Assembly: GCA_048571215.1 (NCBI GenBank)
Contig: CP182352.1
Location: forward strand, 2,208,001 to 2,272,000
Direction of reading: 5' to 3'
Origin: Halarcobacter sp.
GTDB taxonomy: Bacteria > Campylobacterota > Campylobacteria > Campylobacterales > Arcobacteraceae
Length of the DNA: 64,000 nt
Positions within the stretch are counted from its first letter, which is position 1; the number at the start of each line of letters is the position of its first letter. Made by a program: the position numbers and the translations under genes. Positions 416 through 27,413 of the stretch are shown here, one piece after another. The notes under the pieces are model-generated. The model was not told the DNA's origin. It made no database searches and worked only from the letters and a program-made list of their open reading frames with translations.

Positions 416-433
416 TTAAATATATTATACTTT

Positions 434-577
434 ATGCATAAATATCAAGAATTAAAATATCTTGAAAAATATAATATATGTGAAGAAGAAAAAATAAAAC
501 TAATAGAAAACTTATATAGATTAGCACATATTAATTTCAATAATTTTATTGAGAATAATTGAAAAATTATATATTAG
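434..577 (+). CDS. small hypothetical protein upstream of the recombinase (42 aa in code 11, 47 aa if TGA is read)
   Basis: ATG 434, MHKYQELKYLEKYNICEEEKIKLIENLYRLAHINFNNFIENN-TGA-KIIY-TAG. Confidence 0.35.
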
Positions 578-594
578 TATTTAAATACAGAGAT

Positions 595-2400
595 ATGAAT
601 AAAAATGTAATTATTTATTGTAGAGTATCTACCGATAAACAATCTAAAACTTGAGAAAGTTTAGAAGAACAAGAAAGGCAATGTAGGGAATATTGTAAAA
701 ATAATGGTTACCAAGTTTTAGCAGTATTTTCAGAACAATTTACTTGAACAAAAGATAGAAGACCAAAAGTTCAAGAAGCTCTAGAGTTTATAAAAAACTC
801 TGAGCTTCAAATTAATCACATCATAGTATTAAAAATAGATAGAGTTAGTAGATGATGAATTTTAATACACGATAGCTTTAAAAATCAATTTAAAGCATTA
901 TGAGTAACATTAAAAGATACATACTGAGTTATATGAGAAGATAAAAATGTAGTTAAAATAGATTGAATTAATACGGATAAATATAATTGGGCAAAAAGTA
1001 ACTCAAATCAAATTGCAGAAAATGTAACTGTAATGATGAGTGAAAATGAAAGAAATACTATACTACAAAGGCTTTTATGACAAGCTATAAAAAATAATAT
1101 GAGATGATACAAAGTTAGAGATTCTGAGTATGGTTATAAAAATGCAAGAATTATGACTGAGTTTTGAAAAAAAACAATACAAGTTGAAAATACAGAAGAG
1201 AGTATTTATATTAAAAAACTATTTGAGTTAAAAGCTAGATGAGATTTAAGTGATAAAAAAATTGTAGATGAAATTAATTTAATGTGATATAAATCTAGAA
1301 AAAGAGTTAAATGGAATAAAGAAAAAACACAGCCAGTATGAAGTATATGATGAAAACCTCTTAGTGTTGAGCAATTGCAAAGGTATTTAAAAATGACTAT
1401 TTATGCTTGAATTGTTTGTGAGGAATGGACTTGAAATAAACCTATTAAAGCACCTTATAATTGATTAGTTAGTTTAGATGTATGGAATAAAGCTAATAGG
1501 GGAAAGTATAGGTTAACAGAAGTAGAAGATTGAATATTTAAAATAGAGTATTTTAATGGAGAAGAAAAAATTGAAGCTCCAATTATTCAAAAACACAAAA
1601 ACTATAATCCTGAGTATCCTTATTGAAAAGTTTTAGAATGTCCTATATGTTGATGACACTTAACAGCTGAAAAATCTAAATCTAAAAATTGAAGCTATCA
1701 TCATTACTATAGTTGTAGATGAAAAAAATGAGTTAGGCACAAAAATTATTGACTAAGAAGAGATGAGATTAATGAATATATTATAGAGACTTTTTCAAAT
1801 ATTAAATTTGATAAAAATATATTAAAAATATTTAATTTAATATCAAAAGATGTTTTTGAAGATAGAAAAAAAGAGCTACAAGAGAAAGATTTATTAATAA
1901 TTCAAAATATAAAAGATTTAGAAGTAAGAAAAGAATCTATTTTAAATAATATCCCAAATATAATAAACTATCCTGATATTTTAGAAGCACAAAATAATGA
2001 GCTTCAAAAAATAAAACACACTATTTGAGAATTACAAATTAAACAAAAAAACAATACTAAGTCTTTATGATTAAAAAGATTTCAAGATTGTTCTAAAAAA
2101 ATTCTCGAACACCTTGATAAACTAGTATTACAAAGGGATAATCCAGAATTAATACAGCTTGCTTTTGATGTAGTTTTTGATTGAAAAGTAAAGTTTGAAA
2201 ATTTAAAATCTCGAACACCAATTAATAAGGAGTTTTTGGCTTTAAATACAAAAAAAGATTTTCAAAAAAATTGAAAATCTTCATTAAATCTCAAATGGTC
2301 GGAAACAAATAAAAGTTACCACACAATAAAGGATTGGATTGTTAAATTAATAGACAAAATTGATAAGTGGCAGTATGTAATTGAGTGAATAAATATTTAA
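595..2400 (+). CDS. large serine recombinase (resolvase + recombinase + Zn-ribbon + coiled coil), 601 aa, encoded with TGA=Gly (code 25)
   Basis: Frame free of TAA/TAG from ATG 595 to TAA 2398-2400 with ~32 in-frame TGA; YCRVSTDKQ catalytic motif, KIDRVSR motif, CPIC[TGA][TGA]HL and YYSC Zn ribbon; TGG is used for Trp. Confidence 0.92.
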
Positions 2401-2797
2401 CATACTCAGGTGCTCTGAGAAATTTGATATTAGAACTTTTTTAAATTATTTATCAATAGTTGACTTGGAGGAATTAGATGAGTTTAAAAAAACTATAATG
2501 AAAGAATGTTAATTCTTTTTAAATCAATAATAAAAATACTTCTTTATATTTTGTGACACTTAATGAGGTGCATTTGTAGTAAAATAAATATTTTACTATT
2601 AAGTTATAAAATAGTTTCTAACATAAAAAATAAAAAACTTAAATATTTTAATAAAAATTCGTTATTATATAAATAATATAATTATTAAATATCTAATTTA
2701 CTAATTATTAAGTTAATAAAATTACATTTTGTAATATTTCTGCTAAATAATATTTTTATAATATATAATAGAAAAAAAAATGAAAGAAGAGTGAATA

Positions 2798-4328
2798 ATG
2801 TCAAATAATTATGAAACCATAGAAACTTTTTTAAATAACTTTGTGGAATCAATAAGAATTACTGATTCTGCACTTGAAAAAGCAGAAGCTCGTTATAAAA
2901 GTATAGGTAATTGGCTTAATAGGGAAGAATCTGCACTTGTTAAATTTGAACCTGAAATTTATTCTCAAGGTTCAATAAGATTAAATATTGCAATTAAACC
3001 TATACATGACGATGAAGAATATGATTTAGATGCAGTTTGTTTATTAAATAGATTAGCAGTAAATATTATAAGCCAAGAAAAATTAAAAAAAATAGTTGGA
3101 GAAGAATTAGACTTATATGTAAAAGAAAATGGGTTTAAAAAACCTTTACATGAGGGAAAAAGATGTTGGACTATAAAATATTCTGATTCTGCACAATTTC
3201 ATATGGATATATTACCATCCGTCCCAGATGAAGAAGGTTTTAGACAAAAGTTATTTGAAAATAATATTACGTTAGATAGTATTAATAAATTACACACATC
3301 AAGTGCAATCTCAATCACAGATAATACTTCTTCAAACTACCCATATATTCATCATGATTGGAATAAGAGTAACCCTAAGGGCTATCATGAATGGTTTAAA
3401 GAAAAATGTAAAGTTACACAATTAACAAAAAGATTTAATTCTTTGATGGTTGCAACTGAAAGCGTTGAAGAGATACCTAGTCAAGGATATAGTTTTACCT
3501 TTACAAAAAGCAATTATGATTTTAAAAAGACATAGAGATATAATGTTTAAAGGTGATAGTGAACATAAACCTATTTCTGTAATTATAACTACTCTAGCAG
3601 CCAAAGCTTATAAAGGAACAAAAGACTTAAAAGAAACTCTAGATGATATTGTTTTTGGGATGGAAAGAGAAATTGACTGCAATGAAAAATGTATAGTTTT
3701 AAATCCAATAAATCCAAATGAAAATTTTGCAGATAAATGGGAAAACGAACCAATAAAAAAAGAAGTTTTTTTTAGATGGTTAGAACAACTTAAAATTGAT
3801 TATAAATATTTGTCATCAGATAACTATGGTAATACAAAAAATTTACTTGAAAATAGTTTTGGAACAAATGCAATACAAAAAACTTATAATGATAGCTTTG
3901 GGGTAGTTAAAAATTTAGCTATAAGAGCTAAGGAATTATTATCTTTATCTCATGTTCAAAAACCAAAATGGGAAAATAATATAAAATATAGAGTTGATAT
4001 TATTTGTATGAAAAGTAAAAATGGATGGATGTCAAAAGATTTAAAAAGTGGTGAACCAATTGAAAAAAATTGGAATTTAAGATTTGAAGCAAAGATACAA
4101 AATATAGGTTCAGGAAGAAAATTTTATTGGCAAGTTGCAAATAGTGGATTAGAAGCTAAAGATGCAAATTGTTTAAGAGGTAGCTTTTATGAAGGAGTAA
4201 TATCTAAAGGTGGAAAAGTTAGAGAAGAATCAACTAGTTACAGTGGCTCACATTTTGTAAGATGTTTTGTTATTCAAGATAATAAATGTGTTGCAATTAG
4301 TGAACCATTTATTGTAAATATTATTTAA
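2798..4328 (+). pseudogene. CBASS CD-NTase (cGAS/DncV-like, SMODS) with C-terminal AGS-C-like domain, split by a 1-nt frameshift near 3493
   Basis: ORF 2798-3535 has SQGS..L...IKP and EYDLD motifs; ORF 3450-4328 continues with PLQKAIMILKRHRD, KPISVIITTL, NPINPNENFADKW and WQVANSG..LRG..EST.Y.G.H..RCF; removing one T from AGTTTTACC joins them into ~509 aa. Confidence 0.85.
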
Positions 4329-4337
4329 GGAAAAAAT

Positions 4338-5378
4338 ATGAAGTCAGTAATGAATTTTATCTTAAAAATTTTTGAACTTTTAAAGAGTGACCCAAAAACT
4401 ACAATAGCGAAATATATTTTTTTTGGAGGTATTGGACTTCGAGGTATTGGACAAATAGTTTATGAATTTTCCGATAAAGATGTTTCTCATACTCTTACAT
4501 TTTCTGATGGTATTGATTATACTGGATATCTTTTAGTCTTTATAGGTATTGTATTATTAATGATTAGATTTTTTACTATAAAAAACAATTCTCCTACTTT
4601 AGCTTATGGTATTGGCATGGAAAATATGGATATACATTTACCGTTAAAAGCAATTCCTAGTTATGAAAGATATGATTGTATAGAGTTAAGTATTCCTGAA
4701 ATAAATTCATATGATAAAAATGAAGTACTTGAAATTTATAAATTTATTAAAACACTAATTAATTCAAGAGTAGAAAATAAAAACTCACAAAAGGTTTATA
4801 TTGGAGCATTAGGAAGTTTTCCATATCTTTTTTTATTAGGAACCTTATTTAGAAATGCATATTCTCATATACAGTTACTAGATTATGATAGACATGCTAG
4901 TGGCGGAGGGAAATGGTATAAGTTACCACCATATAATGAAAGTACAGAAAAGCTATTTCACAAATTAACGTATGAAGATAAATCTATCGAAGAGAAAATA
5001 CATGAGTTAATAGAAAATGAATTAGATGAAGTAGGTATTGCATTATCATATACTTTTCCTATTAATAAAAAGGCTATTCCTGAATACTTAAGAACCAATA
5101 TACTTTATTTAGAGCATACTTATGGTATAGGGCATGACAAATTATCAAATGAGGAAGCACAAAGAAATTTAATTAATGAATTATCTAAATATATATCTTT
5201 ATTTGCTGATAATGGTAAAAAAATTCATTTATTTGTATCTGCACAATCTTCAATATGTATTAATATAGGGAAATCTTATATGAATAATTCTCATGGAACT
5301 TTAATATTACATAATTATGATAGTTCTACAATAAAATATAATTGGAATATTAAGTTTAATAAAAATAATATAGATTAA
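4338..5378 (+). CDS. 2TM-SAVED CBASS effector
   Basis: Two N-terminal hydrophobic segments, then a SAVED-like region (VYIGALGSFPYLFLLG; IHLFVSAQSSICINIGK); directly after the CD-NTase with AAGGA RBS. Confidence 0.8.
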   Translation: MKSVMNFILKIFELLKSDPKTTIAKYIFFGGIGLRGIGQIVYEFSDKDVSHTLTFSDGIDYTGYLLVFIGIVLLMIRFFTIKNNSPTLAYGIGMENMDIHLPLKAIPSYERYDCIELSIPEINSYDKNEVLEIYKFIKTLINSRVENKNSQKVYIGALGSFPYLFLLGTLFRNAYSHIQLLDYDRHASGGGKWYKLPPYNESTEKLFHKLTYEDKSIEEKIHELIENELDEVGIALSYTFPINKKAIPEYLRTNILYLEHTYGIGHDKLSNEEAQRNLINELSKYISLFADNGKKIHLFVSAQSSICINIGKSYMNNSHGTLILHNYDSSTIKYNWNIKFNKNNID

Positions 5379-5423
5379 TTTTTTTGAAATAATACAACAA
5401 TATAATAAAAAAGGATAAATTAA

Positions 5424-6074
5424 ATGACAATAGATTCATATTTTAAAGAATTAAACGAAGCAATTGATTTCACTGATAGTATGGGGTTAAAATTGCCTAA
5501 AAAAATTAATTTTGACTATGATAAACGATATTTTACGGAAGAAGGCAACTATAAACTAATCAAAGTATATAATGATATTTTTCAGTCTAAATTAATTAAT
5601 GTCTCTGATATGTATGAATTTGCATTAGGGATGATTGCAAACTGTAGTCCTCTTCATTATTTTTTAAAAAAATATTTAGATAAAGAGTTAGGTTGCAAAT
5701 CATATTTTACAATAGGATATATATTATTTGACGATGAAAAGGGAAATTCTTATCATAAAATAACTCAAGAAATTGTTAAAGATTGTCTAAATAATTCTAA
5801 GTTTCCTAAGGATCATCATGTATGGTTAACTTTAGATAGTGGTGAAATTCTTGATTTAACATTTCCTTTAACATATTCTAGTATTCATGATAAAAATTTT
5901 AATAATAGTCTAGAGCAAGGTAAAATTGGAATAAGCTTCATAAATCGGCACATTAATGACTTTCAACATTCAATGACATATAAACCAATACTTATAGGTG
6001 AAAATTTTTTTAGTAAAATCGGATTTGATTTAGAAGATATCTCGTATGTTATGTATAATAAATATATAATATAG
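5424..6074 (+). CDS. hypothetical protein
   Basis: 216-aa ORF with AAGGA RBS; C...H.WLTL..GEILDLT pattern loosely recalls papain/transglutaminase-like folds (unverified). Confidence 0.6.
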   Translation: MTIDSYFKELNEAIDFTDSMGLKLPKKINFDYDKRYFTEEGNYKLIKVYNDIFQSKLINVSDMYEFALGMIANCSPLHYFLKKYLDKELGCKSYFTIGYILFDDEKGNSYHKITQEIVKDCLNNSKFPKDHHVWLTLDSGEILDLTFPLTYSSIHDKNFNNSLEQGKIGISFINRHINDFQHSMTYKPILIGENFFSKIGFDLEDISYVMYNKYII

Positions 6075-6173
6075 TTTATATTATTATTTAAATGTATAAA
6101 TTCTTATTAATTGTGACGCATTTGTGACAAAATGTTTATATAATTTACTAGAAATTCAATATAAGGAAAAAAA

Positions 6174-6515
6174 ATGGCATTATCAGAAATTGATTGTAGT
6201 AAAGTAAAAAACCTTGGTGATATTCAAGGTAGTGGAACAATAGACCAAACTGGAGAAAATAAAGGTATAGATAAAGGAAAAGTTGCTTGTATGCAAAAAT
6301 ATTATCTTGATGATAAAAAAAATAAAAAAGAAGCTAATGAAATAAAAATGATGATTAGCAAATATTATAAAAAATATGAGGCTGATGAAAACTTTTATAA
6401 AGCTCTTTGCAATTGTTGTCAAGAAAAAGTCAAAGGTTTTCCAGGTATTGAAGGAAGTAATCAATGGGAAAAGTTATATAAATGCTTATCCAATAAGGGT
6501 TACAAAAAAAGTTAA
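6174..6515 (+). CDS. small Cys-rich hypothetical protein
   Basis: 113-aa ORF with AAGGA RBS. Confidence 0.6.
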   Translation: MALSEIDCSKVKNLGDIQGSGTIDQTGENKGIDKGKVACMQKYYLDDKKNKKEANEIKMMISKYYKKYEADENFYKALCNCCQEKVKGFPGIEGSNQWEKLYKCLSNKGYKKS

Positions 6516-6530
6516 TTATACAAACTAAAA

Positions 6531-6553
6531 TAGGTATAGATTATCTATACCTA
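6531..6553. terminator. palindrome between convergent genes
   Basis: TAGGTATAGA-TTA-TCTATACCTA. Confidence 0.4.
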
Positions 6554-7723
6554 TTTACAAAATGCTTCATCAAAACTTGGTTTGCCTAGAAACTTAACAT
6601 TACTTATCTCAGTAATATCTCTTCTTTGATTTTCTATTATGTGTAAATATCCTATTTCTTTTTTTCTCTCATTATCTATATAGTCTTTTCCTGTAAGTTG
6701 CAATAAATTTATTACAGCATCAATATAAGAAATTTTTTTATCATCTAAATCTTTGCATATTGAATTATGTGTTTCTTCTATAATTTTTTTAATAATATCT
6801 TTTTTTAGGTAATAAATATATTTTGTATCTTTTCCTAAATAAAATATAAAGTCTTTATTTGAGTTTATTTCTACTTCTCTAACAGATGGCACTCTTATTA
6901 TTGCAATATATTTTTTTGAAATTAAATCAATAATATCAATTTTATAACTTGAATTAAAAAGCTCTAAAGTAATTATTAAAGAGTATGCTATAAAAATAAA
7001 TGAAATTGTAGATAAAAACATCCTTTTTAAATGTTCTTTAAAATTGAATCTAGCAATCTTATCAAAAATTAGTATTATAAATAAAACTGCTAAGAAAAGT
7101 CCTCCCACTATTAAAAATGCTTTTATCATATTTTTTATATACAAGTAAGTGATTAAACTTAAGGTATCAAGAGAGAGATTCTCAATAATAACACCTATAT
7201 TTAATAGGTTTTCACTTACTAAAATAGTTACGATAAAAGAAGTTACTACTATAAAGTAATGTATATTTTTTAAAAATAATCCTGTTATCTTATCAAAATT
7301 AAACTCTTTGTTTTTTTCTTTAAACAATTTTTTTAAATAAAAAAATTCTTTCTCAAATCTTTTTAAAATAGTATTGTTTTCTTCTTTATGTTCAATAATC
7401 AAACACTTTATTATTATTTTTTCTTTATTCTCATGAGATACATTAGAAATTTTGTTTTTTAGTCTCTTTAAAAAGCCCTCTAAATTCTTATTTGAATATA
7501 TATTAAAGTGTTCGTATTCTATAATATTTTCATTTGAAACAATTATTGCAAATGCAGAATATTGTTTTTGAGTAGAAAACATAATCTGAAAACTACTAGG
7601 ATCATTTTCATATCTAAAACTTTCTACATACTCATCTATTTTCTGAATATTCTCTAAGTTACATTCAGTAAATAGTCCACTATATAATTTAAAATCTTCA
7701 TTTTCTTTAATCAAAATTGACAA
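6551..7723 (-). CDS. hypothetical membrane protein
   Basis: 390-aa ORF, TTG start with AAGGAG RBS, several hydrophobic segments. Confidence 0.65.
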   Translation of the reverse strand: MSILIKENEDFKLYSGLFTECNLENIQKIDEYVESFRYENDPSSFQIMFSTQKQYSAFAIIVSNENIIEYEHFNIYSNKNLEGFLKRLKNKISNVSHENKEKIIIKCLIIEHKEENNTILKRFEKEFFYLKKLFKEKNKEFNFDKITGLFLKNIHYFIVVTSFIVTILVSENLLNIGVIIENLSLDTLSLITYLYIKNMIKAFLIVGGLFLAVLFIILIFDKIARFNFKEHLKRMFLSTISFIFIAYSLIITLELFNSSYKIDIIDLISKKYIAIIRVPSVREVEINSNKDFIFYLGKDTKYIYYLKKDIIKKIIEETHNSICKDLDDKKISYIDAVINLLQLTGKDYIDNERKKEIGYLHIIENQRRDITEISNVKFLGKPSFDEAFCK

Positions 7724-7813
7724 GTTTTACTCCTTATAATAATTTCTAGTATATAAAAAATATGTCACAATCGACGTCACAAAAAGTATAAATTTTTAAA
7801 TTTATTATTTTAA

Positions 7814-7899
7814 AGCCATTTCCTGCTATTCATTATAATTAAATGGAAGATTAATTCTACTACTATTAGGACTATCCTACAAAGATAAACACTCTGTTC
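7814..7899. repeat. copy 1 of an ~87-bp structured non-coding repeat
   Basis: About 80% identical by manual alignment to 9802-9888 (AGCCA.TTCCTGCTAT.CATT...ACTAT.AGG.CTATCCT...TAAACAC). Confidence 0.8.
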
Positions 7900-8232
7900 A
7901 TTGTTCAATAATTAATCGTCTAGTCAATCAACCAACTAATCAATTCTACAATAAGCAATTTTAAGGAAGTGTTTTTATGCACTTCTTTTTTTGTCTAAAC
8001 ACCTCTCTTAAAAGCTAATACCCATAAAATGTTTTTTGAAAATATTTAACTTCTAAAAATCAAGGATTATAAGGAGGGTCAGCAATTACAATATCCAATT
8101 TTTTCAAAAACCATATTTTGCACAAAAGATTATATAAGTGGCAAAATATTACATTTGACAGCTATTACTTGCATTGTTGATTAATTAGTGGGATTAATCG
8201 TCCTACTATTTTATATTCTTAACTTATATACT

Positions 8233-19026: not shown

Positions 19027-19028
19027 TA

Positions 19029-19407: not shown

Positions 19408-20737
19408 GAGACCGTTCAAAAATCTGTGTCAAGTCACCTAAAGTAACAAATCCATACTTGTTACAACTCTAAATAATTATCCAATCTCCCTTCGAAAAAT
19501 ATAGCAAGTTGGGAGATTGTTAAACTCCAATTATGCACTGGCTGAGTCCATTTTACTTTTGCATTTAATATTCCCATATACAACAATTTTAAAAGTGAAT
19601 TCTCATTAGGGAAAGCTCCTTTTGTTTTGGTTAATTTTCTAAATTGCCTATGTACAGATTCAATAATATTTGTAGTGTACATAATCTTTCTTATCTCTTT
19701 TGGATATTTAAAATAATAAGATAAATTCTCCCATTTATTTTGCCAAGATTGAAGTACTATGGGATATCTTTTCCCCCATTTTTCATCTAGTTTTAAAAGC
19801 TCATCTTCTGCAAGTTCTTTTGTTGTTGCTTGATAAACAAGTTTTAAATCTCTCATAAACTCTTTTTGGTCTTTAGAAGCTACATACTTCAATGAATTAC
19901 GAATTTGATGTACAACACAAAGTTGTACTTCGGTATTTGGATATATTGTTTTAATAGCTTCAGGAAAGCCTTTAAGACCATCTACTGATGCAATTAGTAT
20001 ATCTTCTAATCCTCTATTATTTAAATCAGTAAGAACACTAAGCCAGAAGTTTGCTCCTTCACTTTGGGATAAATATAATCCTAATATATCTTTTTTACCA
20101 TCAATTCCCATCCCTAAAACTGTGTAAACTGCTTTACTCACATACTTCCCACCATCTTTTATTTTATAATGTATCGCATCAAGCCATACAAATGGATAAA
20201 TAGCTTCTAAAGGTCTACTTTGCCAAGCTTTTACCTTATCTATAATTTTATCTGTAATAGTGCTTATTGTTGCACTTGATAATTGTATTTGATATATCTC
20301 TTCAATATGTTTTATAATATCTCTATAGCTTAATCCTAAGCCATACATAGATAATATCTTTTCTTCTATTTCATTAGACATTGTTGTTTGGTTTTTCTTT
20401 ACAAGTTGTGGTTCAAAAGAACCTGTTCTATCTCTTGGAGTATTCAATTCAAAGGAACCACTTGTTGATTTTATTGTTTTAGAGCTTTTACCATTCTTTC
20501 TATTTTTATTTCCTGCAAATACATCTTGAGTTATATGAGAATCTAATTCTGCTTCTAAAGCAGCTTCAACTAATTGTTTTACTAATGGAGCAAGTACTCC
20601 ATCTTTACCATTGATATTTTTACCTGCAAGTAAATCTTGTACAGCTTCATTAAAATCAAATTGTTTTTTCTTTTCCATCTATATCAATCCTTATAATATT
20701 TATTATATCAGACTGACACAGATTTTCTAACACTCCC
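19408..20737 (-). mobile_element. IS256-family insertion sequence
   Basis: Imperfect terminal inverted repeats (GAGACCGTTCAAAAATCTGTGTCA / TGACACAGATTTTCTAACACTCCC) and 8-bp target duplication GTGTCTTA at 19400-19407 and 20738-20745. Confidence 0.93.
19461..20678 (-). CDS. IS256-family (Mutator-like) DDE transposase
   Basis: RNG...PRDR..SFEPQ, YPFVWLDA, DGLKGF, QLCVVHQIRN, YTTNIIES motifs. Confidence 0.95.
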   Translation of the reverse strand: MEKKKQFDFNEAVQDLLAGKNINGKDGVLAPLVKQLVEAALEAELDSHITQDVFAGNKNRKNGKSSKTIKSTSGSFELNTPRDRTGSFEPQLVKKNQTTMSNEIEEKILSMYGLGLSYRDIIKHIEEIYQIQLSSATISTITDKIIDKVKAWQSRPLEAIYPFVWLDAIHYKIKDGGKYVSKAVYTVLGMGIDGKKDILGLYLSQSEGANFWLSVLTDLNNRGLEDILIASVDGLKGFPEAIKTIYPNTEVQLCVVHQIRNSLKYVASKDQKEFMRDLKLVYQATTKELAEDELLKLDEKWGKRYPIVLQSWQNKWENLSYYFKYPKEIRKIMYTTNIIESVHRQFRKLTKTKGAFPNENSLLKLLYMGILNAKVKWTQPVHNWSLTISQLAIFFEGRLDNYLEL

Positions 20738-20745
20738 GTGTCTTA

Positions 20746-21249: not shown

Positions 21250-22191
21250 ATGAAACTAACTGAAGTTATAAAAGATTTTAAATTTCATTGTGAATATGAA
21301 AAAAACTTAAGTGAAAAAACATTACAAGCGTATAATATAGATTTAAAACAATTTCAAGAGTTTAAAGATTATAAAAGTATAGATATTAAAGATTTTGATA
21401 AATACAAATTAAAAGATTATATTCAAAGTTTATATACACAAGACTTTAAAGCAAAAACTATAAAAAGGAAAGTTGCAGTTTTAAAAGCTCTTTTTACATA
21501 TTTAGAATTTGAAGAAATGATTTTAGTTAGTCCATTTAGAAAAATGAGAGTTTCGATTAAAGAACCTAAAAATCTACCTAAAACAATGGAACTAAAAGAG
21601 GTAAGAAAAGTTCTAAAATATTTATATAAATCAAAAGAAGAATTTTTAGATAAAGATGTTTATACATACAAAGCATTGGTAAGAGATATAGCAATAATAG
21701 AGATTTTATTTTCAACAGGTATAAGAGTATCTGAGTTATGCAGTATAAAACAAAAGAATATAAATTTACAAGCTGGGATTATCAAAATAAAAGGTAAAGG
21801 AGATAAAGAAAGGATAATACAAATATGTGATAATGAAGTAAAAAAAATACTTAGAGAATATATAAATTTATTTAGTATTCAAATGGAAAAAACAGAATAT
21901 TTTTTAGTTAATAGATTAGCAAATAAAACTTCAGAACAATCTGTTAGACTTATGATAAAAAAATATCAAAAGCTATGTGGTCTTGATAAACATATTACTC
22001 CCCATATGTTTAGACATAGCTTTGCTACTTTACTTTTAGAAGAAGGTGTTGATATACGATATATACAGCACATGTTGGGACATTCTTCAATCTCTACAAC
22101 CCAAATTTATACTCAAGTTAATATGAAACAACAGAAGAAGATACTGAATACAAAACATCCAAGGAGGGGTTTAAGTTTTGTAGATGAATGA
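21250..22191 (+). CDS. XerC/XerD-like tyrosine recombinase
   Basis: TGIRVSEL, KGKGDKER, HMFRHSFAT, LGHSSISTTQIY; AAGGAG RBS; TGA stop. Confidence 0.95.
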   Translation: MKLTEVIKDFKFHCEYEKNLSEKTLQAYNIDLKQFQEFKDYKSIDIKDFDKYKLKDYIQSLYTQDFKAKTIKRKVAVLKALFTYLEFEEMILVSPFRKMRVSIKEPKNLPKTMELKEVRKVLKYLYKSKEEFLDKDVYTYKALVRDIAIIEILFSTGIRVSELCSIKQKNINLQAGIIKIKGKGDKERIIQICDNEVKKILREYINLFSIQMEKTEYFLVNRLANKTSEQSVRLMIKKYQKLCGLDKHITPHMFRHSFATLLLEEGVDIRYIQHMLGHSSISTTQIYTQVNMKQQKKILNTKHPRRGLSFVDE

Positions 22192-22193: not shown

Positions 22194-22209
22194 GATAATA
22201 GGTAGTTAT
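22194..22209 (+). other. putative tyrosine-recombinase core site (left)
   Basis: GATAA-TAGGTAG-TTAT; exact reverse complement at 25447-25462. Confidence 0.7.
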
Positions 22210-24462
22210 GATTAAGAAATTATTTGACCGTGAACATGAAAGACATCTTTTAAAAACTTTTTTTGAGAGTAATGATTCCTTTTTTATTGTAATTGGAGAA
22301 AGTGGTGTTGGTAAAAGTTCTATTATCCAAAATACTTTAATAAAAAACTTTTCTTTATCAGAAATAATATCAATATCTTTTAAACCTGAAAATAATATAA
22401 ATAATTTTATTGAAGATGAAGATTTTCTTAAAAATCGGATACACAGTTTATATAGTGAATGTAGAAAAAGAAATATAAATATAGTAAAAAATATAACGAT
22501 AGATTTTAAAGATAAACTTTCAACAATATCGACTAGTGTAGGTATTTCAGGACCGGTAATAGGTTTGGGATTTTCAAATAAAAATATAACTGTTGATGAA
22601 GATTATATTATTCAGTTTGATAAAATAATATATGGTAAACCATATAAAATAATATATTTTTCTAATATAGAACTAGCTAATGCAAATGACTTAAAAATTG
22701 TTGAGCTTTTTTTTAAGTTAGTTAGAAATAAAAAATTAAATATAAAAATGATATTTGAAGTAGGTACATTAAGTGAAAATACAAATTCTACTTTTTTAAA
22801 AAAGCTTTTAGAAGAACATGATGTTTTAGTAAAGCCTTTTAATGAATATTTTACAAATGACTTTTATAAGTTCTATCATAAAGCTAATCCACCGATTGAG
22901 CTATTTGCAAAATCAAAGGGCAATCCCTTTTATATAGTTCACTATTCAAAAAGTATAAAAAATTTTGCAATATTTGATTTAATTAAATCAAAACTTGCTT
23001 CATTAGATATAGACTTATTAAATATAGTCTATACATTATATATACTTGGAGGTTCTGCATCTATTAAAGACTTCAAAGAATTAAGTGAAATTAAAATTGA
23101 TACATTATTATTTCAAATTGAACAATTAGAATTACTTGAAATTCTAACAATCTATAAAAATAAAGTTTCATTTTTTCACTCATTTTTTTCTATATTTTTA
23201 GATACGAAAGACTCAGTAGTTTTAACAGAAATTAGTATTAGAATTAAAAATAGGTTGTTAAATGATTTAGAAAATATTCAAGATGATAATATCCTTTTAC
23301 TGATAAATCTTTTATATAAAACTAATGAAATTAAGAAATTAAGAAAGGTTGGATGGGATTTAGCAAAAAAAACATATTTAGAGCAAAAATATAATTTAAC
23401 AATTTTTATTTGTAAGATACTAATAGAAAATATTTCTGAAAAAAAGTTAAAAACTTTTCCTTCTCTTTTACTAATTCAGTCTTCTATATTAATTGGTAAT
23501 GCTCAAAATTATTTAAAGTACCTAAAAAAATTTGTAAGTATAGATATTAATAATAAATATCTTGTTTCATGCATCAAATCACAGTTACTTTACCAAGAAA
23601 ATAAGTTTCAAGAATCAGTAAATGAAATAGAGAGAACTTTAAAAGAAATTAATAACCAAAGGCTTGAAATAATTCTTTTAGGACTGAATTGTAGTAATTA
23701 TATTGCACTAGGAAACTTTAAAGAAGCTAAAAGTAATTTCATACAAGCAAAAAGCCTTGCAGAAATATTAAATTATAAAGAAATTCTTTTTGAACTTTTA
23801 CGACTTAGTCCTAAGATATTTGGTTGGAAAGTGGGAAGTGAGCTAATATATAAATTTACTAACAATAAAATATCTAATAGTTATGAATATACTAAATACA
23901 AATCTAAACATAATTTAGGTTTTGCAAAAATTCTTACAACAGAAGGTAAAGAAGGACTTGATGAACTATTAGAATCCAAAAGTTATTTTGAAATAAACAG
24001 TATGCCAGAAGTCACTTATTCAGTTGTAGGATTGTCTGTTTATTTAATACTAAAAGAATCATTAGATGATGCAATGTTCTATTTATTAGATGCAAAAAAG
24101 TTTTATACTAAAGCTTTTAATATTTTAAATAATAGAGATAAACCTTTATCTGACCCTATACTTGTATATAAATCAAACTATAACTTATCTTTAATTTATT
24201 TAATTTTAGGAGATTATCCAAATGCAAAGAAGTTTTATAATAATATTTCTATACCAACTTCGGCTTCTTTCTATGAAGCAAGAATAAAGAAAAATGAATG
24301 GTTATATAAAACTATAAAAGAAAAAAGATAAATCTAATTAATGATGTTTATGACAAAAAAACTTGGCCTGTGAGTAAATTTAATTTTACACTTTCTAAGT
24401 TAAGTTTTTTTGACTTAAATTTAAAAATCATTACAAATGAGAATCTACCTAAAGAGCTATAG
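22208..24462 (+). CDS. P-loop NTPase (STAND-like) with winged-helix and TPR-like repeats; probable frameshift in the A-run at ~24321-24326
   Basis: Walker A GESGVGKS, KGNPFY motif, helical TPR-like C-terminal half; track ORF stops at 24331 but the shifted frame continues KINLINDVYDKKTW...PKEL to TAG 24460-24462. Confidence 0.7.
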
Positions 24463-25443
24463 CTTTTTTTGTCTTTTTACTGAATATTTGATTAATTGTT
24501 CAAACATATCCTCAAAACTTTTAAAAAATGTATTAGCTACTTTTGAAAATGCAACTCCTGTTAAAAAAGGACCTGTATTTATTTCTAATAAATAAGCATC
24601 CCTATTTTTTATATCATATCTAAAATCCATACGACAATAATCTTTAATTTCTAAAAAATCGATTAGTTTTTTAGCTATATTTACAAGTGTGACATCCTTT
24701 ATACACTTTAATTCCCTAACAAATCCTGATTCTTTTTCTTTTGCATAAGAAGAAATATAGTTACCCTCATATTCTTGCCTTAAAGGTAAAATCTTCCAGT
24801 TATCAGTATGAATACATGCAACAGTAACCTCTTCGCCTAGTAATGCTTCTTCAATCAAAATATCATCAATACCATTTTCCAATAAAACTTTTATATTACC
24901 AATAGCTTCTTCATAAGAGTAAGCTAAAGGGTTTTTTACAAACTCCATTCCAATGCTATTATCAAACTTAGATGGTTTAATAAATAAAGGAAGAGAAAGG
25001 CTAGAAATAGAATCAAATGAAAAGTCATACTTATTACTAAATAATATTGAATTTGAAGTGGTTATACCTTTACTTGTCACAACTTTTTTTAATAAATCTT
25101 TATCTTGACATAACGTTTGAACAAAGGAAGAAGAACCTATATAGGGCTTTTTTATCAAGTGCAAAAATGAAGGAAGATGAGAACCAATAAATATATTAGA
25201 TCCATCTGTTAGATTCCAAAAAATTGAATTATCATATTTTTCTATAAGATTAAATATTTCTTTTCTATTTAATTTATGATAATCTAACAATATAACATTA
25301 AATCCTATACTTTCAAGAGAAGACTTTACTATATTAATTTCATCTAATGATGCTAAAAACCTTGAGAAAACATAAGGATTTTTCAATCCTTTATTTTTTT
25401 TAATCCAATCCTCTCTTGATTCAAAAAATAAAAATATATTCAT
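24457..25443 (-). CDS. ATP-grasp ligase (D-Ala-D-Ala ligase-like fold)
   Basis: PYIGSS, QDKDLLK, PLFIKP..DNSIG, LIEE.L.G.E.TV, RMDFR, LLEINTGP. Confidence 0.85.
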   Translation of the reverse strand: MNIFLFFESREDWIKKNKGLKNPYVFSRFLASLDEINIVKSSLESIGFNVILLDYHKLNRKEIFNLIEKYDNSIFWNLTDGSNIFIGSHLPSFLHLIKKPYIGSSSFVQTLCQDKDLLKKVVTSKGITTSNSILFSNKYDFSFDSISSLSLPLFIKPSKFDNSIGMEFVKNPLAYSYEEAIGNIKVLLENGIDDILIEEALLGEEVTVACIHTDNWKILPLRQEYEGNYISSYAKEKESGFVRELKCIKDVTLVNIAKKLIDFLEIKDYCRMDFRYDIKNRDAYLLEINTGPFLTGVAFSKVANTFFKSFEDMFEQLIKYSVKRQKKL

Positions 25444-25573: not shown

Positions 25574-25984
25574 ATGTTAAATAAATTAAATACAAATACT
25601 TTAAAAGAGTCTTATATCCTTTCTAATGAAGAAATAAAATTATCTAGACAATTCATTATAGAAAATCAAAATATAATGCAAAAAGATTTTGAAGAAAGTC
25701 TATCGGAAAACAAATTATTAATTTTAATTAACCCTATACATGTACCAATAAAAGAAAATTATATACTTGCTATGAAAGCAATAGTTATTATGAAAGAAAA
25801 TTGAGCAAAAAGATTAGATGAATTTGATAATTATTTCAATATAACAGATAATAAACTATCTGATTATCATGATAAAATAAATAAATTAAAAAAGGAAGTG
25901 GATAAACAACAGAAACTTGATGAGAAAAAAGCAAATACATTAATGAATAAGATTAAGAGTTGAGATTATTTAGATGAAAAATAA
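25574..25984 (+). CDS. hypothetical protein, 136 aa with two in-frame TGA (code 25 inferred)
   Basis: Track ORF ends at TGA 25802-25804 but the frame continues 59 codons to TAA 25982-25984, followed by a terminator. Confidence 0.65.
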
Positions 25985-26052: not shown

Positions 26053-26104
26053 AGCTAATTGTTTTTTGCCCTTAAATCACTTTTATTTTTTAATATTTGT
26101 GATT

Positions 26105-26437
26105 ATGAATACAAATATACTTATGGATTTATCAAGAAATACTCTTTGAGCTTGATATTTAGATGTTCAATTTTTAGTTGAACTTGTTGAAAAATACAAT
26201 CTTGATATAGATGATATATCTGAAAATATTGAATTCTGTTTTTGAAAAGAGTTTAAAACAGATATAAACTATTTCATTTATGAAGCTTTAACTCAAATTG
26301 CTTCAAAATTTATTGAATCAAATATTGAATTATTTGAATCTGAAAGTAATGAATTTGAAATCTATACAAATTTTTTTGATAGTCATATATATTTCACTTC
26401 GGAAATTGTTCAAAGTGAATTTGAGAACTTTTATTAA
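26105..26437 (+). CDS. acidic hypothetical protein, 110 aa with three in-frame TGA (code 25 inferred)
   Basis: MNTNILMDLSRNTL[TGA]A[TGA]YLDVQ...CF[TGA]KEF...EIYTNFFDSHIYF...ENFY-TAA; no GGN codons. Confidence 0.7.
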
Positions 26438-26456
26438 AAAGTTCTCTTTTTAAACT

Positions 26457-26627
26457 TTAATAATACCTCTTCAAACACTCTTCACACATCTTATGAGAAA
26501 TAGAATAACCTTTAGCATCCCATTTCTCAGTAAATTCATCTAAACTATCACATCAAGGACATAGCTCAATATATTTTCTATCTTCATCTATATATAAAAT
26601 ATTCTCTTTTGCTTCTCTATAAAACAT
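26457..26627 (-). CDS. small zinc-finger-like protein, 56 aa with one in-frame TGA (code 25 inferred)
   Basis: MFYREAK...ELCP[TGA]CDS...SISHKMCEECLKRYY; TGA lies inside the first CxxC pair. Confidence 0.65.
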
Positions 26628-26671
26628 ATAAATATAAATTAATTGGTATTTTAATTGAGTGCTTTGGCGAA

Positions 26672-26810
26672 CAAAAAAAGCGGAGAAAGCTATCACCGCA
26701 AAACCAAACATATTAGATGTATCAATCACATAAAATAAGTGGAAATGATAACTTCCTCCACTCTTTAAATGATTGATTTAAAATAATTCTATTATGTATG
26801 ATTTTGCTTT
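26672..26810 (-). promoter_or_regulatory. structured RNA leader with two alternative pairings
   Basis: 26793-26807 pairs with 26698-26712; 26746-26762 pairs with 26679-26695, all three mismatches being G-U on the minus strand, followed by U7. Confidence 0.55.
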
Positions 26811-27047
26811 TTTACTATAAACATTTTTCTAAATATTTCAAATATATTTTAGAACTTCTAAAATGTTTGTACAACACATTTATACAAAAAAATAGTATTT
26901 TAAAATTTAAAGACAATTACTATATTGATGGTATATTAAATTAGCATTAAAGAGCCTAAAAATAGTATTTTTTTGACAAAAAATAAAATTTTATGCTTTA
27001 ATTAATTTCGTTGCGCAACGACTTTAAAATTTAAATAAAATATTATA

Positions 27048-27413
27048 TTGAATACATTTGAAACCCTTTTAGAGATAAAAACAGCAAAAAAGAATTTATC
27101 TCTAAAAGCAATATATATAAAACATCCAAGTAAAAAATTAAAATGAACCTTTTATATTTACTACTTTGATAAAATTAGTCACTCTTTACATATCAACTGA
27201 ATAAATAAAAAAACTATTTCAGAAAGTTCGCTAGAAGAGATTATAAATAGAGTATTTAAAAAAGAAGAAAATAAAAATAAAAAACCAAGTGTTTTTTACT
27301 TTTCTATGCAAGATGATATTGTGTATATTGATAGAGTTAAATTAAAAGCTCAAACAAATAAAAAATGAGAAATTATAAAACTACTTATTGATAGTTCAAA
27401 ATTATACTCTTAA
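27048..27413 (+). CDS. hypothetical protein, ~121 aa with three in-frame TGA (code 25 inferred; may be truncated)
   Basis: TTG 27048 to TAA 27411-27413 with no TAA/TAG between; no GGN codons. Confidence 0.5.

Follow-up and report, generated by a model that had tools for sequence, protein, structure and literature searches.

Can a bacterial chromosome read with the standard code carry intact genes written in another one? The question arose from a 64,000-nucleotide stretch of a Halarcobacter genome (here called the window; the genome is G000), for which an original prediction, made from the sequence alone, had proposed that genes using UGA as glycine (code 25) are interleaved with standard-code (code 11) genes in one mobile element. 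The prediction had counted seven frames with a total near 1,800 codons, some 74 of them in-frame TGA. Delimiting open frames with TAA and TAG as the sole stops, we recovered the four blocks and the complete lack of internal TAA and TAG, but the ORFs numbered six and, with the starts chosen, comprised 1,759 codons and 73 in-frame TGA codons. The other 29 tabulated ORFs (26 from the island and 3 from the chromosome) all lacked in-frame TGA. Given the base composition, the chance of a frame free of TAA and TAG was 1e-23 for the recombinase, 3e-9 for the methylase and 6e-21 for the 530-amino-acid ORF. A genome-wide scan for ORFs bounded by TAA/TAG, 150 codons or longer, holding 4 or more TGA and not mostly overlain by code-11 ORFs gave these three alone, and the 3.6-Mb host genome yielded no further recoded ORF by the same criteria. 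A 90-aa ORF with one TGA (26457-26729, minus strand) lies outside the six counted.

We then asked how TGA is read. Where the recombinase has its 32 TGA codons, four of its distant homologs (background glycine content, 5.9%) carried glycine at 64 of 120 residues and tryptophan at 1 of 120. TGA and GGN were exchanged at identical positions among methylase orthologs, one of which had its SAM-motif glycines written as TGA, and in the alignment of s2 the invariant Gly17 and Gly47 were TGA in the window copy. As judged from these alignments, TGA in the recoded ORFs is a conserved glycine and not a tryptophan, in agreement with the prediction. Few or no GGN codons, as also predicted, were found in five of the six ORFs, the methylase being the exception with 13 GGN versus 11 TGA.

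The host, in contrast to its island, is a standard-code Arcobacteraceae bacterium. Its prfB gene is intact (RF2, 509 bits versus a cut-off of 370 bits) and SelO shares 74% identity with Halarcobacter/Arcobacter proteins. Among the 45 tRNAs of the complete genome, the only one with a UCA anticodon is tRNA-Sec; tRNA-Gly(UCA) was not found in the whole genome, and the window itself holds no UCA-anticodon tRNA, as the prediction had noted. Thus, the central claim, genes in a code-25 dialect within a standard-code host, stood.

Such a pattern could be produced by Gracilibacteria reads erroneously joined to an Arcobacter genome, the more so as the runs that contain this DNA are labelled sediment metagenome and the genome may therefore be metagenome-derived. 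Against such a chimera, Logan contigs of runs X1 and X2 covered window positions 1-11200 with 0 differences, at even depth, and crossed the junctions on either side of blocks 1 and 2 (four in all), which is the part of the island for which the junctions were spanned; these runs may be the source sample and so do not count as independent evidence. Four congeners show the same interleaving, as do most of 37 metagenome contigs taken from other records, some of which have flanks 63-83% identical to G000 chromosomal genes. It was found on single contigs in both G000 and G016, on a 1.05-Mb contig in G007, and also in G017. The bridged junctions and this recurrence refute a chimera for practical purposes, and we regard it as exceedingly improbable.

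Together, the four recoded blocks make up the second dialect of a single integrative mobilizable element, about 34.6 kb long, within the chromosome. The island spans about window positions -2254 to 32402 (Table 1), homology with the G007 island beginning at -2254. On the right, the island ends in a near-copy (98%) of the tRNA-Arg(UCG) 3' part with its flank, the intact gene lying at genome positions 2904139-2904215, and the same 49 bp occur at both ends of the G007 island. No mating-pair genes were detected by Pfam among the scanned element ORFs. The IS256 sequence, of which this genome carries many copies, is a later insertion outside the conserved element. Among the matches listed, its left part recurs eight times at 100% and its right part eight times, with seven matches at 100% and one at 98%. 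The 530-aa protein, unk530, by which we recognised members of the family, has no Pfam or PHROG family, and its AF2 model (pLDDT 81) gave no informative fold match; 69 homologs were found in the protein database. For s1, no ortholog passed tblastn in related loci; the sole likeness, noted by eye, is to a C-terminal stretch of an ORF on contig L107.

Table 1. Features of the island in window coordinates (recoded ORFs: open frame, in-frame TGA and GGN codons).
Feature	Position	Strand	Description and evidence
P4-like tyrosine integrase	about -2070 to -970		Left island end, outside the window; read on L135
AAA/DUF4143 ATPase gene, 3' part	1-415	+	Pfam DUF4143; TGA-free; start at about -835 (full gene read on L135)
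Large serine recombinase (LSR), recoded	595-2400	+	Pfam Resolvase, Recombinase, Zn_ribbon_recom; 601 codons; open frame 559-2400; 32 TGA (Gly), 4 GGN; no Shine-Dalgarno motif
Putative attP-like core AAATGGTCGG	2293-2302	+	Inside LSR 3' end; alignment
CBASS-like cargo	2798-5378	+	Pfam; TGA-free
SMODS/CD-NTase	2798-3535	+	Pfam
AGS_C	3450-4328	+	Pfam; overlaps SMODS/CD-NTase in another frame
SAVED effector	4338-5378	+	Pfam
N4/N6 DNA methyltransferase (MTase), recoded	8447-9193	+	Pfam N6_N4_Mtase, E 3e-38; 248 codons; open frame 8447-9193; 11 TGA (Gly), 13 GGN
DnaJ-domain backbone gene	10269-10733	+	TGA-free internally; TGA stop
HTH regulator	16774-17025	-	Pfam; TGA-free
79-aa ORF	17113-17352	+	TGA-free
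unk530, recoded	17434-19026	+	530 aa, mostly helical; open frame 17380-19026; 22 TGA (Gly), 4 GGN
IS256-family (Mutator) insertion sequence	19404-20740	-	Pfam Transposase_mut
XerC-like tyrosine recombinase	21250-22191		Pfam; TGA-free internally; TGA stop
STAND NTPase with TPR	22208-24331		Pfam; TGA-free
ATP-grasp protein	24457-25443	-	Pfam; TGA-free
s1, recoded	25574-25984	+	136 codons; open frame 25574-25984; 2 TGA, 0 GGN; weakest of the six
s2, small acidic protein, recoded	26105-26437	+	Open frame 26066-26437; 3 TGA, 0 GGN
s3, recoded	27048-27413	+	121 codons; open frame 27048-27413; 3 TGA, 0 GGN
Mobilization backbone	27659-32238		Pfam and orthologs; all TGA-free internally; includes 76-aa ORF (-), 75-aa ORF, DnaJ-domain membrane protein, 112-aa ORF
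Candidate oriT region	27890-28065		Intergenic, upstream of mob operon; from position
Imperfect palindrome	27958-28023		Inside candidate oriT region; inverted-repeat listing
MobC	28308-28670		Pfam
Relaxase	28672-29520		Pfam; TGA stop
Type IV coupling protein (T4CP)	29510-31141		Pfam
Island right end	32304-32402		98% copy of tRNA-Arg(UCG) 3' part and flank

Integrative mobilizable elements related to the island are widespread in Campylobacterales, and in this family the split between the codes is fixed. The serine recombinase, the N4/N6 methylase, the 530-aa protein, s2 and s3 are always written with UGA as glycine: TGA was present in 25/25 orthologs of unk530, 11/11 of s2, 6/6 of the methylase (G017, G026 and four metagenome contigs), 2/2 of s3 (G007 and G016, with 3-6 TGA and dN/dS of 0.30-0.31) and 1/1 of the recombinase. 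Within the host family, s2 was present in 10 of 184 genomes. Conversely, in-frame TGA was absent from the backbone orthologs of the tyrosine integrase, MobC, the relaxase, the 75-aa ORF and DnaJ2 (0/5 each), the 76-aa ORF (0/6), the HTH regulator (0/3) and the 79-aa ORF (0/4). The exceptions, with TGA within the aligned stretch, were T4CP (1/5, on L101) and DnaJ (3/7), the three DnaJ cases probably being the gene's own TGA stop. The recoded orthologs of congeners and metagenome contigs occupied identical positions in the gene order, the HTH regulator and the 79-aa ORF being kept immediately upstream of unk530, and the code-11/code-25 gene junction at 17100-18972 was kept in the orthologous loci.

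Both sets of genes have also diverged to a similar degree. Between G000 and G007, dS was 0.86 for unk530 and 0.74 for s2, compared to 0.73 for T4CP, 0.75 for MobC and 0.73 for the DUF4143 gene, with dN/dS of 0.19-0.30 for recoded and 0.07-0.28 for backbone genes. Overall, dS was about 0.7-1.3 in both sets and dN/dS of the recoded genes ranged from 0.09 to 0.58. Recoded and backbone genes have thus diverged jointly under purifying selection. This contradicts the recent exchange of DNA inferred in the original prediction, since the recoded genes are long-standing, conserved members of the family's gene set.

The same data bear on whether the recoded genes are dead cargo, arriving repeatedly and one way from Gracilibacteria-like donors, never translated and caught before decay. 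Close relatives of the recombinase are known in Gracilibacteria metagenome-assembled genomes (MAGs), and G000 contains a decayed remnant (genome positions 720990-721514) with 6 TGA, 2 TAG and 5 TAA. In the G554 copy (contig L146), unk530 is interrupted by one TAA and s2 by one TAA/TAG, and the recombinase slot holds unrelated enzymes in G000 and G007 (25% identity), suggesting replacement of the module. But the two stops on L146 were the only ones in all 45 recoded orthologs, leaving 43 of 45 free of TAA and TAG, and none of 5,000 simulated copies of unk530 stayed open after 24.3% random substitutions (mean, 21 new stops), which excludes neutral decay of this gene. Of the close unk530 homologs (identity of 42% or more), most lay on mosaic contigs, one on L107 (53%) being in an all-TGA context. 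Together with the shared dS, the constrained dN/dS and the preserved gene order, these results largely refute dead cargo, which we consider improbable.

We next looked for the recoded genes in true code-25 genomes. As predicted, the nearest genomic relatives of the recombinase were in Gracilibacteria MAGs (64-66% identity); these recombinases abut tRNA-Lys(UUU). Homology to these integrated copies stopped at 2293-2302, exactly at the 3' end of the tRNA, as one would predict for a mosaic copy whose attP, at this putative recombination site, has not recombined. Homologs of s2 were found in 6 of 401 Gracilibacteria-class genomes and lay about 3-4 kb from the LSR in four examined LSR-bearing loci (L171, L173-L175), one of whose LSRs shared 55% identity with the recoded LSR of mosaics L102 and L106. 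In a Gracilibacteria MAG, a STAND gene almost free of TGA and located beside an LSR and tRNA-Trp was 52% identical to cargo of mosaic L101. By sequence similarity, the recoded genes thus have relatives within integrative elements of true code-25 Gracilibacteria genomes. Neither a mosaic copy nor a close homolog of its markers was found in the 401 sampled Gracilibacteria-class genomes and 5 named ones; plasmids are often absent from MAGs, which bears on this search. In this class, unk530 matched in only 5 of the 401 genomes, all at 26-33% identity, the s2 homologs were distant (43-74 bits versus about 190 bits for orthologs), and the MAG recombinases closest to the LSR were flanked exclusively by TGA-rich genes. 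Of the standard-code modules, for which the prediction had proposed such a search, the coupling protein found matches of at most 40% identity, solely in standard-code or contaminant contexts. These results weigh against residence of the element in code-25 cells.

The lack of a mosaic copy in the sampled code-25 genomes would also be in line with a Trojan cargo, by which the recoded genes are kept for the host's benefit, harming or manipulating a UGA=Gly parasite that takes up its DNA, and the element never becomes established there. The island does hold defence genes (CBASS, STAND NTPase), and its TGA-free genes are unadapted to code 25. Yet the recoded genes are of the kind by which mobile elements typically maintain themselves (integrase, methylase), no toxin-like families were detected with Pfam or PHROG, the Gracilibacteria relatives belong to integrative elements, and the attP-like junction matches the Gracilibacteria tRNA-Lys site, pointing to integration rather than damage. 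We therefore give this explanation little credence.

Translation signals separated the two dialects as well. A Shine-Dalgarno-like motif preceded 0.37 of host ORFs (n = 274) and 0.39 of TGA-free mosaic genes (n = 126) but only 0.02 of recoded mosaic genes (n = 62), compared to 0.00-0.05 in true code-25 loci (n = 32, 94 and 18). Hence, the recoded genes resemble Gracilibacteria-class genes, while the backbone is host-like. In the window, AAGGA/GGAG is missing ahead of the recoded ORFs and precedes many neighbours, as the prediction had noted for AAGGA. The genes ending at 10733, 22191 and 29520 do stop at TGA, as predicted, and TGA stops were as common in TGA-free mosaic genes (26/167, 15.6%) as in the host (39/274, 14.2%). 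The TGA-free genes of the element thus show no adaptation to a code-25 cell, which counts against a second host.

Purifying selection without the element ever leaving its host would be explained by conditional decoding, whereby an occasional helper (phage, plasmid or ICE) supplies a UGA-reading tRNA-Gly, and maybe blocks RF2, in Campylobacterales; the recoded genes would be made only with the helper, recoding serving as a helper sensor or timing device. This would liken the island to stop-codon-recoded phages, and a precedent is described in work on recoded phages and prophages that carry suppressor tRNAs in standard-code hosts (Liu et al. 2023, PMC10746230; 10.1101/2021.08.26.457843). Against it, tRNA-Sec is the only UCA-anticodon tRNA of G000, no suppressor tRNA was found in 52 related loci (ARAGORN) or in 127 kb of sister islands (Infernal), and G000 has no other recoded ORF that might mark a helper. 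Moreover, such a difference in Shine-Dalgarno use would not be expected of genes read by one pool of ribosomes, and code-25 genomes contain native relatives of the recoded families. We consider conditional decoding unlikely.

The conserved, selected split suggests that the island family also lives in UGA=glycine bacteria. The evidence favours, with somewhat better than even probability, a dual-host element, with translation of the recoded genes confined to UGA=Gly cells, as in the shuttle element with modules switched by the host's code that had been put forward originally. In the Arcobacter host, RF2 would terminate the recoded ORFs within a few codons, so that they would be silent. Once the DNA enters a UGA=Gly cell, for example an epibiont or predator of the host that resembles Gracilibacteria or Absconditabacteria, they could be translated; the serine recombinase would then insert the DNA at the 3' end of a tRNA gene, for this clade tRNA-Lys(UUU), via the attP within its own 3' end, and the methylase would shield the incoming DNA. 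If so, the genetic code itself would act as a host-specific expression switch. We found no two-code mobile element of this kind in the published literature. The roles of attP, oriT and leading region are proposed from the anatomy of the island: s1 to s3 point toward the presumed oriT and may be early establishment genes in such a cell, an orientation that would fit the leading regions described by Samuel et al. (2024, PMC11541004), where anti-defence genes and methylases are co-oriented, permitting transcription from the incoming strand.

Six reading frames of the island, totaling 1,759 codons from the chosen starts, have no internal TAA or TAG and contain 73 in-frame TGA codons. The original prediction had counted seven such frames with about 1,800 codons and about 74 TGA; these totals held, while the number of frames is six. 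In-frame TGA was absent from the other 29 ORFs tabulated, of which 26 belong to the island and 3 to the chromosome, and three island genes (ends at 10733, 22191, and 29520) terminate in TGA, as had been predicted for neighbors using the standard code (code 11). Calculated from base composition, the chance of a TAA/TAG-free frame was 1e-23 for LSR, a serine recombinase, 3e-9 for MTase, a methylase, and 6e-21 for unk530, a 530-amino-acid helical protein. These three were also the only hits in the 3.61-Mb single-contig genome when we searched for TAA/TAG-bounded ORFs of at least 150 codons that harbor at least four TGA codons and are not mostly covered by ordinary ORFs.

Recoded open frames of the island (positions in the window; s1 to s3 are small proteins)
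Frame	Positions	In-frame TGA	TGA/GGN	Stop codons applied
LSR	559-2400	32	32/4	TAA/TAG only
MTase	8447-9193	11	11/13	TAA/TAG only
unk530	17380-19026	22	22/4	TAA/TAG only
s1	25574-25984	2	2/0	TAA/TAG only
s2	26066-26437	3	3/0	TAA/TAG only
s3	27048-27413	3	3/0	TAA/TAG only

The meaning of TGA was read from homologs. At the TGA columns of LSR, four distant homologs carry glycine in 64 of 120 residues and tryptophan in 1 of 120, the overall glycine frequency there being 5.9%, which bears out the predicted placement of TGA at conserved glycines and led us to reject TGA=Trp (code 4). At these columns, close database homologs alternate between tryptophan and glycine, a pattern that gene callers translating TGA as Trp would produce. 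Selenocysteine fits poorly, with 32 TGA codons in one gene aligned to glycine. Aligned codon pairs comprised 14 TGA-TGA and 6 TGA-GGN for unk530 and 2 to 9 TGA-GGN for pairs of methylases, TGA and GGN being exchanged at identical positions among MTase orthologs, one of which writes the glycines of its FxGxG SAM motif as TGA. In s2, two invariant glycines are TGA codons in the window. The glycine columns of homologs, the TGA/GGN exchange, and the invariant glycines of s2 thus identify the dialect as UGA=Gly and, judged from sequence, the recoded genes are written in code 25.

The genome that carries them uses the standard code. The chromosomal SelO adjacent to the island is 74% identical to Halarcobacter/Arcobacter proteins, followed by those of Poseidonibacter, Aliarcobacter, and Marinarcus; prfB, encoding RF2, is intact (509 bits against a cutoff of 370 bits); the only UCA anticodon among the 45 tRNAs is that of tRNA-Sec; and code-11 ORFs cover about 94% of the genome. 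On these genomic grounds the host is a standard-code Arcobacteraceae bacterium and not a code-25 organism, in keeping with the original assignment. Its tRNA set is small: the only glycine tRNAs are three copies of tRNA-Gly(UCC), and the arginine tRNAs have no anticodons other than UCG and UCU. A helper-supplied tRNA-Gly(UCA) could decode the recoded genes in this same host, but the genome has no UCA tRNA besides tRNA-Sec, and no suppressor tRNA was detected in the window, in the 52 related loci scanned with ARAGORN, or in 127 kb of sister islands scanned with Infernal; we regard this explanation as unlikely. An assembly artefact is hardly credible, since X1/X2 Logan contigs cover positions 1 to 11200 and cross the four junctions of the LSR and MTase blocks with even depth and 0 differences, although these runs possibly derive from the source sample. 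One contig joined 2255 to 7257 with a side of only 21 letters, and this joint was taken as spurious. No RNA data set was among those listed as containing positions 16500 to 20000.

The island begins at -2254 in window coordinates, where homology with a congener island starts. A P4-like tyrosine integrase and an AAA/DUF4143 ATPase are encoded at its left end. The right end, at 32304 to 32402, duplicates the 3' part of tRNA-Arg(UCG) and its flank with 98% identity, the intact gene being 696 kb away. The left end shares only the 8-nt core GCCGAAAC with this right-end fragment, and the sister island of the congener G007, which adjoins tRNA-Arg(UCG), has an identical 49-bp repeat at both ends. The interior encodes CBASS-like genes, a PKD-repeat protein, an HTH regulator, an IS256 copy, a XerC-like recombinase, a STAND NTPase, an ATP-grasp protein, MobC, a relaxase, and a coupling protein. 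The mobility genes are the integrase, MobC, the relaxase, and T4SS-DNA_transf, and no VirB4-like family was found among the 30 ORFs scanned. By gene content, the island is an integrative mobilizable element (IME) of about 34.6 kb, with an integrase, a relaxase, and a coupling protein and, among these ORFs, no mating-pair genes of its own.

Several further features of the island were recorded. The CBASS cyclase is split between two frames overlapping by 86 nt (SMODS/DncV-like, 2798 to 3535; AGS_C, 3450 to 4328) and looks like a frameshifted CD-NTase gene. The Rfam Flavo-1 model, whose gathering score is 42, matches the minus strand at 7815 to 7877 and 9803 to 9866 with 27 and 41.7 bits. These matches form a 48-nt direct repeat (7805 to 7852 and 9793 to 9840, 79% identical) around a 2-kb cassette containing a 72-amino-acid ORF, the recoded methylase, and a TGA-free Lcl_C gene; a third match adjoins the methylase in the congener G017 (contig L096, 11388 to 11450), and the repeats may be cassette boundaries or recombination sites. 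An IS256-family insertion sequence (19404 to 20740) directly follows unk530; among the matches listed, the rest of the genome has eight more copies of its left part, all at 100%, and eight more of its right part, seven at 100% and one at 98%. Within the 1,401-amino-acid PKD-repeat gene, five tandem 303-bp units, 98 to 100% identical, and 34 nt of a sixth occupy 11290 to 12838, and a 565-amino-acid antisense ORF across them is probably a repeat artefact. Just beyond the right end, at 32395 to 32492, lies an approximately 80- to 100-bp repeat with more than 20 genomic copies at 86 to 92% and more in congeners, which looks like a REP- or MITE-type element.

Two of the recoded frames encode recognizable proteins. 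LSR matched Pfam Resolvase (E value of 5e-19) and Zn_ribbon_recom above the cutoffs, its Recombinase domain scored 19.5 bits, slightly below the 21.1-bit cutoff, and R10, S12, and Q16 of its YCRVSTDKQ motif were invariant in 21 sequences. Its predicted architecture, a resolvase domain with the catalytic serine followed by recombinase and zinc-ribbon domains, is that of a large serine recombinase. MTase is an N4/N6 DNA methylase. For unk530, s1, s2, and s3 no family match was obtained. AF2 models of unk530 and s2 were confident (pLDDT of 81 and 80, respectively), and neither had a Foldseek match in the PDB at an E value of ≤0.001; for unk530, the wide VIA-align search returned only generic helical bundles (best Z of 8.9). 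The 69 database homologs of unk530 all lie on contigs of at most 28 kb, and the protein was unmatched in PLSDB plasmids, INPHARED phages, and IMG/VR. The top PLSDB match of the coupling protein was 37% identical. Known anti-defense families were not detected in the island by family and fold searches. That the recoded genes are cargo directed against epibionts and serving the host seems to us improbable.

The split between two codes extends across a family of islands. Related islands with intact TGA-rich ORFs occur in the congeners G007, G016, and G017; among these ORFs are an unk530 ortholog with 22 TGA, a methylase 93% identical in nucleotide sequence, s2, s3, and further recombinases and membrane proteins. 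The G016 island has at least 10 recoded ORFs among TGA-free genes across more than 25 kb, including membrane proteins with 24, 15, and 8 TGA codons and a 518-codon ORF with 23, indicating that recoded cargo differs from island to island. Among 37 metagenome contigs encoding unk530, most are mosaics of recoded genes and a TGA-free backbone, with about 10 to 25 TGA in unk530 and none in long neighboring ORFs; all-TGA contexts were restricted to contig L107 and the most distant matches. The common gene order is coupling protein, DnaJ2 (a DnaJ-domain membrane protein), LSR, MTase, and DnaJ, then HTH, a 79-amino-acid ORF, unk530, and XerC-like, then s2, s3, ORFs of 76 and 75 amino acids, MobC, relaxase, and coupling protein. 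In the metagenome mosaics L102 and L106, the coupling protein and DnaJ2 genes are followed directly by the recoded recombinase and methylase and the P4-like integrase module is missing, an order as would be expected for a circular or differently integrated form of the element.

Across all loci, TGA was carried by 25/25 orthologs of unk530, 11/11 of s2, 6/6 of the methylase, 2/2 of s3, and 1/1 of LSR, and the recoded families contained only two TAA/TAG codons in total, both on one contig. Backbone families had TGA in 0/3 to 0/6 orthologs, except for the coupling protein (1/5, a single TGA in the metagenome locus L101) and DnaJ (3/7), in which the TGA is probably the gene's own stop codon. The flanks of several mosaic contigs are 63 to 83% identical to chromosomal genes of the source genome, showing that these mosaics reside in related standard-code chromosomes. 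Of the 184 species genomes searched in the host family, 10, from 7 of 22 genera, contain s2, each time with one to three TGA codons. Among 401 genomes sampled from the order, unk530 was found in four, namely, the source genome and three others from three further families.

We then compared substitution in the two gene sets. Between the source genome and G007, dS was 0.86 for unk530, 0.74 for s2, and 1.32 for s3, and 0.73 for the coupling protein, 0.75 for MobC, 1.19 for the relaxase, and 0.73 for DUF4143; dN/dS was 0.19 to 0.30 for recoded and 0.07 to 0.28 for backbone genes, and 0.09 to 0.58 for recoded genes in other pairs. In a neutral simulation at the observed divergence of 24.3%, none of 5,000 copies of unk530 remained open, with a mean of 21 new stops. 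The low dN/dS, the shared dS, and the simulation thus indicate that the recoded genes are not recent dead cargo, and repeated arrival of dead code-25 cargo, largely refuted by these data, is a poor explanation. Such a pattern of substitution argues that the recoded genes have been translated with UGA as sense throughout the divergence of the family. The recent exchange originally proposed has to be abandoned in view of the backbone-like dS, the purifying selection, and the family-wide split.

The source genome also contains a decayed second unk530 (genome positions 720990 to 721514; 56% identity over 173 amino acids) with six TGA, two TAG, and five TAA codons, and this remnant shows what such a gene would look like after selection is lost. 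A few kilobases away, at 713775 to 717281, lie genes whose homologs flank an intact unk530 beside tRNA-Asn in the metagenome locus L108, and the region may be an older element at a different site.

The two gene sets also differ in their translation start signals. A Shine-Dalgarno-like motif preceded 0.37 of host ORFs (n = 274), 0.39 of TGA-free mosaic ORFs (n = 126), and 0.02 of recoded mosaic ORFs (n = 62). In true code-25 loci, where TGA makes up 0.61 to 0.69 of glycine codons, the fraction was 0.00 to 0.05 (n = 32, 94, and 18). TGA stops ended 26 of 167 TGA-free mosaic genes (15.6%), compared to 39 of 274 host genes (14.2%), and the next TAA/TAG after a TGA stop lay at a median of 9 codons, compared to 4 in the host. 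By their stop codons and start signals, the TGA-free mosaic genes are ordinary host-style genes.

Relatives of the recoded genes were found in code-25 bacteria. LSR is 64 to 66% identical to recombinases of Gracilibacteria metagenome-assembled genomes (MAGs), whose neighbors are all TGA rich and whose genes abut tRNA-Lys(UUU). The homology between these and the mosaic copies of the source genome and metagenome locus L105 reaches AAATGGT(G/C)GG and breaks off at the very position from which the MAGs continue into the 3' end of the tRNA; the two mosaic copies have a common but different 33-codon tail. We infer that the MAG copies are integrated, and the mosaics would keep an unrecombined attP in the 3' end of LSR (2293 to 2302). 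Distant s2 homologs occur in 6 of 401 Gracilibacteria-class genomes, all in all-TGA contexts, and in four of the regions examined (L171, L173, L174, and L175) they lie about 3 to 4 kb from large serine recombinases, that of L174 being 55% identical to LSR of the mosaics L102 and L106. The end of the recombinase gene adjoins or overlaps a tRNA gene in L173, L174, and L175; in L171, no such gene was detected. These s2-homolog regions also contain a Walker ATPase of about 785 amino acids, a Replic_Relax protein, and restriction systems. In the Gracilibacteria MAG contig L005 (16033 to 20799), a 1,588-amino-acid STAND NTPase with 3 TGA and 53 GGN codons has a serine recombinase on one side and tRNA-Trp on the other. 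Its identity to a TGA-free cargo gene of mosaic L101 is 52%, and it looks like a standard-code gene now in a code-25 chromosome, TGA encoding about 60% of glycines in the genome holding L005.

The same 401 sampled Gracilibacteria-class genomes, together with 5 named ones that were also searched, contained no mosaic copy or close marker homolog. unk530 matched in 5 of the 401 at 26 to 33% identity, and the coupling protein, with at most 40% identity, only on standard-code or 65%-GC contaminant contigs. What these genomes share with the islands is limited to distant homologs of recoded genes, related recombinases, and one cargo gene, the element itself being integrated in standard-code Campylobacterales.

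Taking together the partition by code and Shine-Dalgarno motif, the co-divergence under selection, and the homology to genes of code-25 elements, we give somewhat more credence than doubt to a dual-host element whose second gene set is read in a UGA=Gly cell. While in Arcobacter, the element would be maintained through its tyrosine integrase and mobilization genes, with the recoded ORFs cut short by RF2. Once in a UGA=Gly cell, the recoded set would be translated: LSR would insert the DNA at the 3' end of a tRNA and the methylase would protect it. The genes s1 to s3 lie beside a presumed oriT (27890 to 28065) and point toward it, and they may be leading-region genes like those described for conjugative plasmids (PMC11541004). 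More tentatively, and with doubt prevailing, the islands could be interphylum shuttles between Campylobacterales and UGA=Gly Patescibacteria living on them, with code and ribosome-binding signal as the switch. Of the original prediction, the observation thus stands and its shuttle option is the one we favor, whereas recent exchange is rejected.

A reassigned code is usually regarded as a barrier to gene flow. Here, a family of mobile elements retains, under selection, two sets of genes that differ in code and in translation start signal, which implies that selection acts on both sides of the code barrier. Should Gracilibacteria-like cells translate the recoded set, this would be a natural case of the genetic code as a host-specific expression switch and a genomic sign of a physical link of Arcobacteraceae or other Campylobacterales with UGA=Gly Patescibacteria. 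Screening standard-code genomes for intact TGA=Gly modules could then reveal hosts and, were the shuttle real, such modules would flag hosts of uncultured Gracilibacteria, and epibionts might ferry mobile DNA between hosts. A study of Gracilibacteria identified, in its available text, no hosts for those it covered (PMC11452946). If a helper tRNA acted in the host instead, the islands would be a new kind of code-gated satellite. Under both readings, standard annotation pipelines overlook the recoded genes or label them pseudogenes.

Among known systems, the phages predicted for Gracilibacteria and Absconditabacteria, and perhaps also for standard-code bacteria, are TGA free, and every prophage in those CPR genomes is pure code 25, with no mosaic described in the available portion of the study (Liu et al., mBio 2023, PMC10746230). 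Phages and islands are alike in that each is mobile DNA proposed to function on either side of the boundary between UGA=Gly and standard code, and each raises codon choice as a possible determinant of host range. However, the phages avoid in-frame TGA throughout and back up their TGA stops, whereas the islands have a fixed TGA-dense subset, their other genes use TGA stops at the host rate, and they are integrative mobilizable elements integrated in standard-code chromosomes. A dual-code phage would have no in-frame TGA and rare or backed-up TGA stops; the 73 TGA codons in six ORFs do not match this pattern.

The island resembles IMEs that insert at tRNA genes: a tyrosine integrase and a 3' fragment of a tRNA mark opposite ends, MobC, relaxase, and coupling protein occur without genes for mating-pair formation, and defense genes are carried as cargo. 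It differs in having a second, presumably silent gene set in another code, including an integrase of another family with a putative att site of its own. In conjugative-plasmid leading regions, anti-defense genes and methylases are, in the sections available to us, oriented for transcription from the incoming strand (Samuel et al., Nature 2024, PMC11541004). In the island, too, a methylase and small uncharacterized genes adjoin the presumed oriT and face it, the layout expected of genes expressed first in a recipient, but here they would be readable only by a recipient of a different code, oriT and transfer direction both being presumed. Patescibacteria carry a conjugation-like type IV system, and the available part of that survey gives only 109 relaxase homologs in 103 genomes (PMC12102498).

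Stop-recoded phages and prophages of standard-code hosts use TAG=Gln or TGA=Trp, according to the available text of two reports (PMC10746230; 10.1101/2021.08.26.457843). Phage structural and lysis genes would be expected of such an element, as would a suppressor tRNA or other code-change machinery. Pfam detected no phage families among the ORFs scanned, PHROGs matched only one family without known function among 14 ORFs, and there was no suppressor tRNA, so that the island is not itself a phage of this type. According to these reports, suppressor tRNAs, release factors, or tRNA synthetases are common in recoded phages; the islands have none. The islands further differ by UGA=Gly, by recoded genes without the host Shine-Dalgarno motif, and by homologs native to code-25 bacteria. 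We found no description of elements of standard-code hosts with a UGA=Gly gene subset in the open-access literature and bioRxiv. In both recoded phages and islands, only part of the genes need the reassigned stop, and recoding is thus able to gate their expression. The kind already known is that of recoded mobile elements in standard-code hosts, of which the island family is a variant.
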